UHGV virus genome: UHGV-0103875
Direction: 5' to 3' (one strand)
DNA: 17,896 bases
Origin: a virus
Below the pieces are notes generated by a model, which did not search any database, was not told the origin of the DNA, and saw only the letters and a program-made list of their open reading frames with translations. The translations under genes and the position numbers were made by a program. Positions 4,703-13,803 of the stretch are shown here, one piece after another (position 1 is the first letter of the stretch; every line of letters begins with the position of its first letter).

Positions 4703-7168
4703 TCAGAATCCTCCTTTCTTCTTGGATTGCGGTTCCTCGCGTTCACGGCGGCGCATTTCAGCAGACTGTTGGTCTGTGTCATAAATAGCGCCATTTGCCT
4801 GAATGCAATACACCGTGCCGGTATTGCCATGACGATTGAGACGAAGGATTAGTTCGGTTTCACCAGGTGGAACACTGTCATCAAAAGCACCTTCACGATG
4901 GATCCCCACCCAATAATCGCAATCCTGTTCAATCTGCCCTGTATCTCGTGAGTCACTTGGTAATGGGCGTTTATTGGTTCGGCTTTCCAGTGCGCGGTTA
5001 AGCTGTGTCAGAAGCACAACAACGCAATCAAGCTCTTTGGCAAGGTTCTTCAGTCCTTTGGTGATCATGCCGTAAGCAAGGTCGTTGCGATCGGCCTTTT
5101 CAGCGGTCATTAGTGTCAGGTAATCGACCAGAATCATGCCAACACATCCTTTTTCTCGCTTGATTCGACGGCTTTCGCTGACGATTTGAGCCAGAGATAA
5201 TCCCGGCGTGTCGTCGATGTAAAGCATGTCGATTTCACTCAAGCGATTGGCTGTTTCGATCGCCCTGTTGAAGTCACCATCGTAATCACCCTGATAGCCG
5301 TCATCAGCGTCATTTGTCGCCGGAAGGTAAAAAATATTCGGGTTAACACCAGACTTCTGCCCTACCAGTTTTTCCAGTATCTGGTCACCTGGCATTTCAA
5401 GGCTGAACATCAGAGCGGGCTTTTTCTCATGCACTGCGCAGTTGATTGCCATCTGGCTGTATAGCGTGGTGTTGTGGGTTAGAATGTATCCGTCAGTTGC
5501 ATACAAATGTCTCTCGTGGGATACCATGATGCAAATGCACTCTTCACGTCCAATATACTCAACCGACGTGATAACAGGCGCACTTGTTTTGATGCGTTTT
5601 GCAGTGAATTTTTGCTTCAGGCGTGGAGATTTTATGTGTGATAGAACCTCATCAGGCAACCTGATTGCGCAAATATGGGCATCCATACCTTTGCGCATTT
5701 CTCCCTTATAACTGAATTTCGGCTCCTGTTTGGTTGTCATACGACACACGCCACCAAGAGAATGCACCAGCCGCTTTACACCATCTGACAGGAACTTGCT
5801 TGCCGAGCTAAAGCGCAGGGCATTATTTCCTTCAACCCAACCATCGGTTTCAAGTAATCCGCATAGAACATCAATACGAGTTTGCTTATCAGCAGAAAAA
5901 ATAATATCCGGGATAATTTTAATCTCTGACATCCGGCCGTAGATACCAAGCCGTTGCATAACCCGCGTAAGAGATAATTTGCGGCTAAACTTGTGAGATA
6001 GGGAGTAATCGCAGCCAGAAACATGCCTGACTTCAATATCGTCACCCACTTCAGATCTTACTCGCTCAATGATGTATGGTTCCGTCATGCTGATTCGTGG
6101 CGTACCTGCAAGATTTCCATCGCCAAGTAACGCACCTAACAGCCATGGGCTAATCCCTAAATCAACAGGCAATCCGAAGTCACCGCTAATACCAGGAACA
6201 TGAATGCGGCTTTGATAGCGAACGCATTCCATCATGTCCCGTAGGCGGCAGGTGTCTACAACATCAACGCCACCGGTAATACGGTTACTATGAATTTCCC
6301 ACAAATGATCATCCGCGCAATCAACGGTTCTTCCGTCAGAGAACGTAACTCGGTAAATATCTCGCTCCCCTTGAGGAAAAACTCCAGACACGAATGATGG
6401 TTGTCCATCCACTGATGCTAGGGAATCTCCAACACATACGTCACGAAATGTTGTCCATGAACCATCAGCAAGCAAAATGCGTGAATTAAGCGGTTGCGCT
6501 TTCCCCATCTTAGGGCGAGCGCCAATGACGAACAGAGAGCCTTTCACCAGACCTTTCGGTGACAGCATCCTGTCCAGAGATGGGATCCCTGTGCTCATTC
6601 CTCGTTGTTCGCCTGACGGGTCAAATCGCTTCTCAAGGTCGCTAACCCAGTCTTCCATGACCTCACCAAATGAGCGAAGGCCGCGACGCGATCCGGTTTT
6701 TGCATGGTCTGTCAGTTGCGTGAAAATCGCCTGAATAGCTTCGTACTTCTGCGTCGCAGTCATTCCGTTGCGGGAATAGAGCAATTCCGTCGCTTCAGTC
6801 ATGCGGTTGATGGCGTAGCGTTCCATTGCGGTTTCGCGAACCTGCATTGCATAGGCAACGATGTTTGCGGCGCTTGCCGTGTTCTTTGCGATCTCAGCGA
6901 TATAAGCAAAACCGCCAACAGACGCCGTTAACGATTTACGCTCCAGTTCACCGAAAAGCGTCAGGCCATCTACTGGCTTTTGCTCCCGGTGCATTCTGGT
7001 TATTTCTTCGAAAAGGATTTTGTGTGGTCGGCTGTAAAATGAATCAGGCTTCAGCATCGCCAGAACTTTCTGGACGCGCTCACTGCTGTCATCATCCAGA
7101 AGCAATCCACCAATCACCGCCTGCTCTGCCTCGATGCTATGGGGCGGCGCATAAAAATTATCGGTCAT
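4703..7168 (-). CDS. DnaB-family replicative helicase (P22 gp12-like, replaces lambda P) interrupted by an intein; ORF track gives a GTG start at 7183, first ATG is at 7168
   Basis: N-terminus PPHSIEAEQAVIGGLLLDD…FYSRPHKILFEE…VGGFAYIAEIAKNTASAANI is colinear with remembered E. coli DnaB. Walker A GARPKMGK is split from TTLYSQMAINCAV…MFSLEMPG by 343 residues. C-terminal half has DnaB motifs (ILVDYLTLM, LTQLNRALESR, GQIEQDCDYW). Confidence 0.85.
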   Translation of the reverse strand: MTDNFYAPPHSIEAEQAVIGGLLLDDDSSERVQKVLAMLKPDSFYSRPHKILFEEITRMHREQKPVDGLTLFGELERKSLTASVGGFAYIAEIAKNTASAANIVAYAMQVRETAMERYAINRMTEATELLYSRNGMTATQKYEAIQAIFTQLTDHAKTGSRRGLRSFGEVMEDWVSDLEKRFDPSGEQRGMSTGIPSLDRMLSPKGLVKGSLFVIGARPKMGKAQPLNSRILLADGSWTTFRDVCVGDSLASVDGQPSFVSGVFPQGERDIYRVTFSDGRTVDCADDHLWEIHSNRITGGVDVVDTCRLRDMMECVRYQSRIHVPGISGDFGLPVDLGISPWLLGALLGDGNLAGTPRISMTEPYIIERVRSEVGDDIEVRHVSGCDYSLSHKFSRKLSLTRVMQRLGIYGRMSEIKIIPDIIFSADKQTRIDVLCGLLETDGWVEGNNALRFSSASKFLSDGVKRLVHSLGGVCRMTTKQEPKFSYKGEMRKGMDAHICAIRLPDEVLSHIKSPRLKQKFTAKRIKTSAPVITSVEYIGREECICIMVSHERHLYATDGYILTHNTTLYSQMAINCAVHEKKPALMFSLEMPGDQILEKLVGQKSGVNPNIFYLPATNDADDGYQGDYDGDFNRAIETANRLSEIDMLYIDDTPGLSLAQIVSESRRIKREKGCVGMILVDYLTLMTAEKADRNDLAYGMITKGLKNLAKELDCVVVLLTQLNRALESRTNKRPLPSDSRDTGQIEQDCDYWVGIHREGAFDDSVPPGETELILRLNRHGNTGTVYCIQANGAIYDTDQQSAEMRRREREEPQSKKKGGF
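5471..6499 (-). mobile_element. Intein (343 aa) with LAGLIDADG homing-endonuclease domain, inserted in the helicase P-loop; candidate class 3 (Ala1, W-C-T triad)
   Basis: Insert begins AQPLNSRILLADGSW immediately after GARPKMGK and ends …ATDGYILTHN followed by Thr (HN/T C-terminal splice junction). Two LAGLIDADG-type motifs inside (WLLGALLGDGNL and LCGLLETDGWV). Block B has …DDHLW, block F …CICIMV, block G GYILTHN, consistent with a Trp/Cys/Thr class 3 arrangement. Flanks rejoin to GARPKMGK-TT, restoring a canonical GKT P-loop. Confidence 0.75.
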
Positions 7169-8057
7169 CGTGTTCACCCTCACGAACTTTCAGGTAGGTA
7201 TTATCGTTAAGCAGGAAATCAAATCCCTTTTTGTGCCAGACGGTTCCGCGCTGATGGTTTTGGCGCTCTTCGAACATCCATCGGCAATTTTCGCCTACGT
7301 AGCTCAAATAATTTCTCCAGTCCTGCATCGTGAACCCATGCCCGTCAAGCTGGCGGGTTATCACTCCGGCTTTGCGCCAGAACGTTCGGATCTGGTTTTT
7401 ACGCTTGTCATTCAGTGCGCGGATTTTTGGCGCTTCAGGAAGGATTTCGTGGTAAGCATCGACAACATCCTGACAGCTAACGGAAGGTTTTTTCTTGTCA
7501 GACTTTTTGTCTGCTGCGGTACTCTCTAATACGTCAGTATTAGAGATAATATTATTATATTCTTTATCTGTGGTAATTTGCTGGTAATCTGCTGGTACAG
7601 TATTGCTTGCAGGCATTGGTATTGCTGGCTTTGAGGTGGTAATTTGCTGGTAATCTGCTGGTACAAAATTTGACTGATAATCGTCATATTTCTCTACCGA
7701 GAAAACTGAGAATTTACCGTGTGAAACCCAGTCAATCATGCCGAGTTTTTTGAACTTTCTAAGCAGGTACTGAACGCGATCTGGTTTGAGTCCTGTTTCA
7801 AACGCCAGAGAGTTTCTACCGCCAAGTAGCTTCCCTCTGCCTACCAGAATTTCTCCTGCGTCAGTCATTACATACTCAGGCGTATGCTTTGCTTTGAGGA
7901 TTAAGTGAACCCACAGATGCGCAGCTTCTGCGTCCTTGTAAAACGGCACATCCATAATTTTACGGTGCAGCAAGGCATACCCCTTACCGCTGCTTTGATG
8001 CGGTTGTTGTAGCCTTCTGGCCTCTCTGGCTTCGGCTAGATTAGATATGTTACTCAT
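7158..8057 (-). CDS. Replication initiator (lambda O / P22 gp18 functional analogue) containing the origin iterons
   Basis: 299 aa; position between cII and the helicase. Central peptide repeat [10 protein letters not shown] x2 is encoded by the DNA iterons. RBS AGGAGAAAGG before ATG 8057. Confidence 0.7.
7541..7667. repeat. Candidate replication origin: direct iterons (TGCTGGTAA/C-type, two copies of a ~30-bp unit GTGGTAATTTGCTGGTAATCTGCTGGTACA) with adjacent AT-rich tract
   Basis: Unit GGTAATTTGCTGGTAATCTGCTGGTACA occurs at ~7573-7600 and ~7638-7665; each holds two TGCTGGTA sub-repeats; a degenerate copy ATTGCTGGC at ~7621. AT-rich stretch AGAGATAATATTATTATATTCTTTATCTG at 7541-7569 lies on the downstream side in the O reading direction, as in lambda ori. 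Confidence 0.65.
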
Positions 8058-12639: not shown

Positions 12640-13608
12640 ATGAGTGAAGTAACAGATTTAGTTGTTATTGAAAAAGCAAATGCAATGACTGTATTTCAGT
12701 CTGCCGATCAGATTGAAGAAATCCTTCAAAAGGTTGAACGTGAAGTTATGTCCTTTGTGCCTGATATCACAACGGCAAAGGGAAGAAAGGAGATCGCTTC
12801 TCTGGCGTATAAAGTTGCGCAGACGAAAACATATCTCGATGGTCTTGGCAAAGACCTTGTTGCTGAACTGAAGGAAATTCCAAAGCTAATTGATGCTAAC
12901 CGCAAGACAGTGCGTGATCGCCTTGATGAGCTGAAAGCCAAGGCACGCCAGCCTCTTACTGATTATGAGGAAGAACAGGCGCGGATTAAAGCCGAAGAAG
13001 AAGCTAAGGCAGCAGCTGAAGCTCTCGCAAAGCAAATTGAGTCTGACCATGAAATAGCGATTTTGATGGATCGCGAATTTGACCGCCAAAGAGAAGAGGC
13101 AAGACTCAAAGCGGAGCAGGAAAAGCGAGAGCATGAAGAACGCTTAAAAAGAGAAGCTGAAGAGAAAGCCAGAGCTGAAGCCGAAGCAAAGGCAAAAGCC
13201 GAAATTGAAGCAGCAGCAAGGCGAGAAGCAGAAGCTAAGGCCGCAGCGGAACGTGCAGAGCGTGAACGCATTGAAGCCGAGCAACGAGCACAGCGCGAAG
13301 CAAAAGAGGCAGCAGAACGAGCTGAAAGAGAAAAGCAGGCAGCAATTGAAGCAGAACGCCGAAAAGCACAGGAGGAGGCAGAACGAATCCGGCGCGAGGC
13401 TGAAGCAAAAGAGCAAGCCAGAATAGCAGAAGAAAAAAGAATCAAGGACGAAGAAGAGCGTAGAGCAAAGGATAAAGCTCACCGGAGAGAAGTAAATAAC
13501 AAAATACTTGCTGACCTTATCAAGGTTGGCGCATCAGAAGATGTTGCTAAAAATATCATAATAGCCATCGCAAAAGGCGAAGTATTCGCAACAAAAATAA
13601 CCTACTAA
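12640..13608 (+). CDS. Highly charged coiled-coil protein (~322 aa) with long E/A/K/R-rich repeat region
   Basis: Start ATG 12640 preceded by GGGGGAA; the ORF-track N-terminal extension is rejected. Central ~180 aa are quasi-repeats of AEAKAKAEIEAAARREAEAKAAAERAERE… flanked by ordinary N- and C-terminal segments. Confidence 0.6.
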   Translation: MSEVTDLVVIEKANAMTVFQSADQIEEILQKVEREVMSFVPDITTAKGRKEIASLAYKVAQTKTYLDGLGKDLVAELKEIPKLIDANRKTVRDRLDELKAKARQPLTDYEEEQARIKAEEEAKAAAEALAKQIESDHEIAILMDREFDRQREEARLKAEQEKREHEERLKREAEEKARAEAEAKAKAEIEAAARREAEAKAAAERAERERIEAEQRAQREAKEAAERAEREKQAAIEAERRKAQEEAERIRREAEAKEQARIAEEKRIKDEEERRAKDKAHRREVNNKILADLIKVGASEDVAKNIIIAIAKGEVFATKITY

Positions 13609-13632
13609 TAAAACCAACATAAGGAACCACCC

Positions 13633-13803
13633 ATGATTTACGCAATCGCGGGAGGCGCTCGCATGGGTGCCTTCCAACTAAATGAATCTTTACTTGAACG
13701 AATCACCCGTAAATTACGTGACGGATGGAAACGCCTTATCGACATACTTAATCAGCCAGGAGTCCCAAAAAATGGATCAAGCACTTATGGCTATCCAGAC
13801 TAA
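13633..13803 (+). CDS. cIII: CIII (FtsH inhibitor, protects CII); below the ORF-track size cutoff
   Basis: Translates MIYAIAGGARMGAFQLNESLLERITRKLRDGWKRLIDILNQPGVPKNGSSTYGYPD; the C-terminal 40 residues are nearly identical to lambda CIII. RBS AAGGAA upstream. Confidence 0.85.
   Translation: MIYAIAGGARMGAFQLNESLLERITRKLRDGWKRLIDILNQPGVPKNGSSTYGYPD

Follow-up and report, generated by a model that had tools for sequence, protein, structure and literature searches.

In the virus genome UHGV-0103875, analyzed here over its whole 17,896-nt stretch (hereafter the window), the gene for a lambdoid-prophage replicative helicase of the DnaB family is interrupted by a 1029-nt segment that appears to encode a bifunctional intein, i.e., a HINT splicing domain with a nested LAGLIDADG homing endonuclease, seated between the Lys and the Thr of the Walker A motif (K/T). 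We consider this explanation likely when taken as a whole, including the class 3 mechanism and homing, on the basis of sequence comparisons and a predicted structure. Elements of this kind are already known, and class 3 inteins at the DnaB P-loop site form a large clade. The window intein itself carries no intein label in databases, its host being a "helicase DnaB" in GenBank (which holds the identical 821-aa protein) and a set of pseudogene fragments in RefSeq, and no paper on the intein of this HK620/Sf6/VT2-Sakai-type helicase came up in a literature search. The gene is organized as follows (descending coordinates follow its reading direction):

4703..7168, minus strand: helicase precursor gene (phage DnaB family, HK620 P / Sf6 gp44 type), 821 aa from the ATG at 7168, stop codon included in the range
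6500..7168, minus strand: N-extein, 223 aa, ending with the first half of Walker A (GARPKMGK, 6500-6523)
5471..6499, minus strand: intein, 1029 nt, 343 aa, Ala1 to Asn343, residues 229-571 of the open reading frame (ORF) in the 826-codon numbering
6200..6499, minus strand: HINT N-terminal lobe with blocks A and B, intein residues ~1-100; His65 and Trp67 at 6299-6307
5600..6199, minus strand: LAGLIDADG homing endonuclease domain, intein residues ~101-300
6116-6142, minus strand: LAGLIDADG motif 1 (LLGALLGDG), intein residues 120-128, with Asp127
5918-5920, minus strand: conserved Lys194 of the endonuclease domain
5840-5866, minus strand: LAGLIDADG motif 2 (LCGLLETDG), intein residues 212-220, with Asp219
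5471..5599, minus strand: HINT C-terminal lobe with blocks F and G; Cys321-Ile-Cys323 at 5531-5539, Thr341-His342-Asn343 at 5471-5479
4703..5470, minus strand: C-extein, 255 aa plus stop; first residue Thr+1 (5468-5470, codon ACC)

Insertion site and intein-less alleles

A mechanical ORF list gives the minus-strand ORF as 4703..7183, or 826 codons counted from a GTG at 7183, and this was the protein length stated in a preliminary description of the same DNA; the ATG at 7168, which is the start in GenBank proteins and in HK620 P, gives 821 aa instead. The ORF contains the Pfam domains DnaB and DnaB_C and scores 554.6 bits against the NCBIfam model TIGR03600 (phage_DnaB; cut-off 498.65), in two matched stretches that skip residues 229-571. 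The skipped portion is an in-frame, stop-free insert between GARPKMGK and TTLYSQ that starts with Ala and ends in His-Asn followed by Thr, just as the preliminary description had read from the ORF translation. A random insert of 1029 nt (343 codons) would be free of stops with a chance of ~7e-8.

Comparison with related phages located the insert to the base. A megablast search with the gene as query, run on 50,697 phage records, returned 87 records matching at 95–99%, including HK620, HK633, Sf6, VT2-Sakai, Stx2 phage 86 and HK75. Each of these alleles aligned as two pieces amounting to 59% of the query (1452 of 2481 nt), and at megablast sensitivity the middle 1029 nt was absent from all 87, so no phage record of this set has the intein. 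Nucleotide identity of the exteins to the intein-less phage alleles was 98–99%, including both flanks in HK620 P, Sf6 gp44 and VT2-Sakai P. With positions 5471-6499 left out, the window DNA encodes a 478-aa protein in which the Walker A junction GARPKMGKTTLYSQ is restored, and is collinear with HK620 P, the two differing by 15 substitutions over 1452 nt and by zero indels; the intein-less HK620 P site reads GCTCGCCCTAAGATGGGGAAA directly followed by ACGACGCTATACAGCCAGATG. Aligned with HK620, the bases at the junction are GGGGAAA on one side of the insertion point and AC(G/C)ACG on the other. The preliminary description had placed the insert exactly at this point and had predicted that its excision would recreate a canonical P-loop, GARPKMGKTT; both statements hold against the intein-less alleles, which do not retain the segment as a conserved domain. 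In composition, the GC content at third codon positions is 0.405 in the intein vs. 0.565 and 0.498 in the exteins, and the AT skew switches sign across the insert.

The same comparisons exclude explanations other than an intein, for which we found nothing specific in favor. An accessory domain kept in the mature helicase was rejected: about 95% of the Escherichia coli alleles of this helicase lack the segment and have an intact P-loop, and a retained segment would leave Walker A split. Insertion of a DNA element, such as an insertion sequence (IS), another transposon, or a group I intron carrying an ORF, fares no better. Neither terminal inverted repeats nor a target-site duplication was found at the insert borders, on which grounds an IS or transposon was rejected, and the segment continues the host ORF in frame and free of stops. 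The intein fold and the intein junction residues described below are likewise at odds with either kind of insert.

Fold and class 3 signature

When the segment was searched by phmmer against the sequences of the PDB, the matches were exclusively inteins: engineered and native gp41-1, Mycobacterium smegmatis DnaBi1 (Msm DnaBi1), M. chimaera MchDnaB1 (6rix, 6riy), PI-SceI, Prp8 inteins and PI-PkoII. The top sequence match, 6riz, was rejected as the nearest natural relative, being an engineered gp41-1 with grafted W and C. The best natural matches are the class 3 inteins Msm DnaBi1 (6bs8, 1.3e-6) and MchDnaB1 (6rix, 3.9e-6), and in a ranking by similarity, rather than a tree, class 3 DnaB inteins come first among natural relatives of solved structure and the class 1 gp41-1 next. 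The splicing blocks A/B and F/G could be aligned to 6bs8, 6rix and 6qaz; the preliminary description had proposed an alignment to intein block profiles as a check. Pfam LAGLIDADG_3 scores 25.1 bits (gathering cut-off 22.5), and the two LAGLIDADG-like motifs noted earlier are both present, each ending in an acidic residue (Asp127 and Asp219).

Structure prediction agreed with these assignments. An AlphaFold2 model of the intein, computed from a 23-sequence alignment, had a mean predicted local distance difference test score (pLDDT) of 91.1 and a predicted template modeling (pTM) score of 0.90. Foldseek comparison of this predicted model with the PDB gave a probability of 1.00 to many inteins. 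For the whole model the best matches were the TliVMA intein, PI-SceI (E ~1e-16) and PI-PfuI, within a range of 1e-16 to 1e-11; these share the two-domain architecture (E ~1e-16, query TM 0.6–0.73) and differ in being class 1 inteins (Cys1) of other host proteins with 11–17% sequence identity. The endonuclease domain alone matched I-DmoI and I-Tsp061I, and the HINT part matched MchDnaB1 and Msm DnaBi1 with a target TM of 0.85–0.86. The homing endonuclease has acidic residues closing both motifs and a fold like that of PI-SceI, PI-PfuI and I-DmoI; it is apparently intact and is predicted to be active.

Class 3 inteins are recognized by a non-nucleophilic residue 1, Trp at B:12, Cys at F:4 and Thr at G:5 (the WCT triad), and Thr or Ser at +1 (PMC2807308, PMC3196547). 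Our HMMER alignment to Msm DnaBi1 reproduces the published numbering of that intein (Cys48, Asp62, His65, Trp67, Cys118, Thr137, His138, Asn139), with the roles of the residues taken from PMC6195587 and PMC2807308, and pairs them with the window intein as follows:

Msm Ala1: window intein Ala1
Msm Cys48: window intein Ile48
Msm Asp62: window intein Ala62
Msm His65: window intein His65
Msm Trp67: window intein Trp67
Msm Cys118 (catalytic): window intein Cys323
Msm Thr137: window intein Thr341
Msm His138: window intein His342
Msm Asn139: window intein Asn343
Msm Ser+1: window Thr+1

The window intein carries every sequence feature of class 3, and the residue-by-residue alignment with characterized class 3 DnaB inteins at the same site upholds the class proposed in the preliminary description. 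The triad named there also stands as to its residues, in the motifs DDHLW (residues 63-67), CICIMV (321-326) and THN (341-343), with one correction of position: the Thr is the third-last residue of the intein (block G position 5), and the penultimate residue is His342. Within CICIMV the second Cys (Cys323) occupies the catalytic block F position and Cys321 is additional. Block B position 7 is Ala62, neither Thr nor Asp.

The signature is shared across a large family. An exhaustive phmmer search over 1.84 billion cluster representatives returned 15,603 proteins with E<=1e-3, of which 2,794 reached E<=1e-30. Many of the relatives are ~760–850 aa long with a match beginning near residue 200–235, as would be expected for DnaB-type helicases with an intein at the same place, and relatives of 30–50% identity are also inserted in PhoH-like, UvrD-like and AAA proteins. 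Among the best 150 relatives, His65 and Trp67 are invariant (150/150 each), Cys323, Thr341, His342 and Asn343 are each present in 149, and 148 have Thr or Ser at +1. Ala occupies position 1 in 118, with Cys or Ser there in only five; Lys stands at -1 in 139, and the same number (139/150) follow GK. The full class 3 signature is present in 140. In the endonuclease, Lys194 and Asp219 are each retained in 148/150, and position 127 is Asp in 118 and Asn in 30. No relative was confirmed in the GTDB species-representative genomes, where the word-based pattern method probably misses the intein, or the representatives lack this prophage.

The closest solved relatives, Msm DnaBi1 and MchDnaB1 (class 3; 6bs8, 6rix, 6riy), likewise have DnaB hosts and interrupt Walker A at the same point, mycobacterial site b, with GK before the intein, A...THN as its ends and Ser or Thr after it; they share with the window intein Ala1, His65, Trp67, the block F Cys and the terminal Thr-His-Asn. 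Msm DnaBi1 is preceded by GK and begins ALALD (primer sequence, PMC7664689), and the K/T position is the "classic" P-loop intein site of many ATPases (PMC5050341). The mycobacterial inteins are 139–145-aa mini-inteins without an endonuclease in cellular dnaB; that of the window has its full length and a LAGLIDADG domain that is apparently intact, and its host is a phage-type helicase of enterobacterial prophages. The window intein also lacks the redox partner Cys48 (Ile48) and has Ala for Asp at B:7, and identity over the HINT region is ~27–29%.

The class 3 prototype is the MP-Be DnaB intein of mycobacteriophage Bethlehem, which has been demonstrated to splice and to form a block F branched intermediate (PMC2807308). 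Like the window intein, it is a phage helicase intein (341 aa) with an endonuclease, His 65, Trp 67, the WCT triad, Thr+1 and a non-nucleophilic residue 1; it differs in having Pro1 and in its flanks, VSQDQ upstream and TKNTF downstream, rather than a GK/T P-loop junction. A tblastn search of AY500153 bases 30000-52000 found no relative of the window intein, and the published MP-Be DnaB intein was not located there; the Msm and Mch DnaB inteins were used for the alignment in its place. In that phage, gp62, a "DnaB-like helicase", is just 273 aa long, and gp52, a "phosphoesterase" (L004 7578-9296, 572 aa), appears by eye to have an unrelated intein-size insert at a HEGNHD–C boundary.

Splicing by a route other than class 3, e.g., direct attack by Thr+1 as in class 2 KlbA-like inteins or with some other first nucleophile, we regard as very improbable. 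In its favor, class 2 KlbA inteins are likewise marked by Ala1, Cys323 has another Cys two residues ahead of it (Cys321), and sequence alone cannot reveal mechanism. Yet class 2 is known from archaeal KlbA only, without WCT (PMC2807308, PMC3196547), and all tested inteins combining Ala1 or Pro1 with WCT (MP-Be DnaB, Dra Snf2, MP-Catera gp206 and Msm DnaBi1) need Cys F:4. The two cysteines also differ in conservation, Cys323 being near-invariant in relatives (149/150) and Cys321 present in 38 of the 150 closest representatives.

We therefore favor class 3 chemistry, by which splicing would proceed as follows. The 821-aa precursor would be made with a split P-loop and presumably be dead as an ATPase. 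With Ala1 unable to start the class 1 acyl shift, the Cys323 thiol would attack the Lys(-1)-Ala1 bond, assisted by His65 and by packing of Trp67, to give a block F branched thioester. The N-extein would then be handed to the hydroxyl of Thr+1, forming a block G branched intermediate; Thr+1 is the Walker A Thr and would thus double as the splice nucleophile. Cyclization of Asn343 with the help of His342 would release the intein, and an O-to-N shift would form the Lys-Thr bond, yielding GARPKMGKT in a 478-aa helicase with the architecture of HK620 P. The endonuclease (Asp127, Asp219, Lys194) is predicted to cut intein-less alleles in the GGGGAAA/ACGACG region when two phage genomes meet, and repair of the cut allele would copy the intein in. 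Replication of the prophage would depend on splicing, because the insert splits the P-loop and this phage type brings its own DnaB-family helicase.

The additional cysteine forms a CxC pair, Cys321-Ile-Cys323 (window 5531-5539), that is common to the intein of the Stx phage Min27 (see below) and to many PhoH-type relatives. In mycobacterial DnaBi1, a Cys48-Cys118 redox trap and zinc inhibition have been shown, and these provide a model for a CxC switch in the window intein. It is conceivable, if doubtful, that Cys321-x-Cys323 forms a disulfide or binds zinc, making splicing conditional and placing a post-translational gate on prophage replication. If so, oxidative or metal stress would influence helicase maturation and through it the replication that follows induction.

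Conservation, spread and the pseudogene annotation

In a 449-member GenBank protein cluster from E. coli, Salmonella and Shigella the frame is intact over 821 codons. Eleven other full-length (821-aa) members, sampled across E. coli, Salmonella Alachua and Shigella boydii, have 0–1 changes in the intein relative to the reference and 3–9 in the exteins. Compared with E. coli strain 631, the window has 24 differences in the exteins and 0 in the intein (p ~2.6e-6 under a uniform distribution).

IMG/VR holds 13 loci with this intein. Eleven of these have the same helicase allele as the window, with exteins 97.5–99.2% and inteins 99.7–100% identical. In two others (L011 and L013) the intein is 99.7% identical and the exteins are just 65–67% identical to the window helicase at the nucleotide level; their N-extein is 96.5% identical to that of the intein-less Citrobacter phage Omnitron. 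A third helicase allele (L015) carries a more diverged intein, 81% identical to that of the window in nucleotides and 87% in amino acids. Relative to this copy the ratio of nonsynonymous to synonymous substitution rates (dN/dS) is 0.062 overall, 0.049 in the HINT domain and 0.072 in the endonuclease, with every catalytic residue kept. The Thr+1 codon is ACC in every intein-plus allele examined (the window, and position 4030-4032 in L006, L011, L013 and L015), even with 66%-identical exteins, and ACG in HK620, the one intein-less allele compared; the ACC could be a minimal co-conversion mark or a target-site change.

The intein is present in 18 of 5,426 complete E. coli genomes. The helicase region occurs in 373 genomes of this species, and in 357 of them the site is uninterrupted. 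Together, the conservation, the low dN/dS, the spread into diverged alleles and the minority frequency indicate a functional, recently spreading minority element.

Several observations weigh against this reading or parts of it. The Pfam models of the splicing domain match just weakly, Hom_end_hint scoring 20.8 bits, under its cut-off. The window intein has Ala at B:7, where Msm DnaBi1 has Asp, a position that is dispensable in the prototype MP-Be intein (PMC2807308). A gp41-1 intein given C1A (Cys1 replaced by Ala) and WCT mostly cleaved, with no productive splicing (PMC7664689); because this graft failed to splice, the class 3 signature is necessary but not sufficient. One natural class 3-like intein, which lacks Cys F:4, is dead (PMC3196547). 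As to homing, identity between the window and L011/L013 extends 13 nt beyond the intein on the upstream side and 9 nt on the downstream side, and a shared flank of ~20 nt in 66%-identical alleles is hard to square with ordinary homology-dependent homing. Finally, RefSeq annotators treat the helicase gene as two pseudogene fragments.

The last point implies a different history, in which the insert is an intein by descent that no longer splices and the helicase is a dead gene in a decaying prophage. The annotation pipeline PGAP places two partial pseudogenes ("incomplete; partial in the middle of a contig"), bordering the intein exactly on both sides (L001 8233-9000 and 10030-10698; NZ_CP040263.1), and in all 18 complete E. 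coli genomes the intein itself is left without an annotated feature. There is also precedent for such decay, since the non-splicing class 3-like intein Arth_1007 lies in a prophage remnant (PMC3196547), and one truncated, fused remnant is known in the present group (P0017). This 565-aa protein (NCBI/Logan, contig of 235,726 nt) joins the helicase N-extein and intein residues 1-109 (99% identical) to a Phage_stabilise (PF11134) protein, a chimera that probably arose when a decaying prophage lost a large internal stretch, including the rest of the intein and the intervening late-region genes. Against general decay stand the 821-codon frame kept across the 449-member cluster, the scarcity of changes in the intein (0–1 vs. 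3–9 in the exteins of sampled members), a dN/dS of ~0.06 in both domains, and the recent spread into diverged alleles. The catalytic residues are all retained, also Cys F:4, a residue missing from the Arth_1007 intein, and the host contigs of 38–56 kb resemble full-size prophages. A dead intein is thus improbable, and we take the pair of pseudogenes to be a systematic mis-annotation of a gene interrupted by a probably functional intein.

Related inteins, genomic context and significance

The closest phage relative is the P-gene intein of the Stx phages Min27 and phi24B (also in Stx2a phages), 46–48% identical in amino acids over all 343 residues. It has the same architecture, with Ala1, DHLW, CxCIMV (CLCIMV) and THN followed by Thr, resides in E. 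coli lambdoid prophages, and also splits Walker A between Lys and Thr (GVNGHGK before the intein and TE after it). Its host is a T7 gp4-like primase-helicase and not of the DnaB family, the flanking DNA is unrelated (25/60 nt identical), and nucleotide identity between the inteins is ~58%. We take the Min27 copy to be the "EP-Min27 Primase intein" of InBase. Min27 P is annotated as 860 aa (L003 388-3296), followed by an overlapping 111-aa "DNA primase" ORF, and the phi24B orthologue is reported as 968 aa, a discrepancy that points to a frameshift or a sequencing error toward the 3' end of the gene in Min27. The phi24B copy has been noted, uncharacterized, in PMC3430580. This Stx-phage intein is the only other enterobacterial-phage case that we found in the literature, and a 2016 survey described inteins as apparently absent from E. 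coli and Salmonella (PMC5050341).

The neighborhood of the helicase in the window is a standard lambdoid early region, with genes for a Q-like antiterminator, RusA, an antirepressor, a DNA methyltransferase, NinB, the helicase, an O-like initiator, a CII-like activator and a CI-like repressor. Adjoining the helicase is the following gene, whose 3' end overlaps the helicase start by 11 nt; the O-P order is the same in HK620.

7158..8057, minus strand: O-like replication initiator gene (PHROG 345, replication initiation O-like, E = 5e-88)

Elsewhere in the window, an ORF at 12640-13608 on the plus strand has a long Glu/Ala/Lys/Arg-rich, coiled-coil-like middle part and explains both the extreme AT skew, as high as 0.65, and the GC skew at 12751-13750. 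The label "cell envelope biogenesis protein TolA" was seen in related E. coli prophage regions and may belong to the counterpart of this ORF.

The window intein leaves known intein mechanisms unchanged. It is a second intein, distinct from that of the Stx phages, in a very common type of replication module (HK620/Sf6/VT2-Sakai) of prophages in E. coli, Salmonella and Shigella, and its pseudogene annotation could cause the replication module of these prophages to be misread as defective. It would also provide a class 3 intein of full length whose endonuclease is apparently active, in a host in which homing and splicing are genetically testable. Its main value lies in the correction of this annotation and in a tractable native system: if our explanation is right, E. 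coli and Salmonella would offer one for studying both class 3 splicing and homing between diverged helicase alleles.

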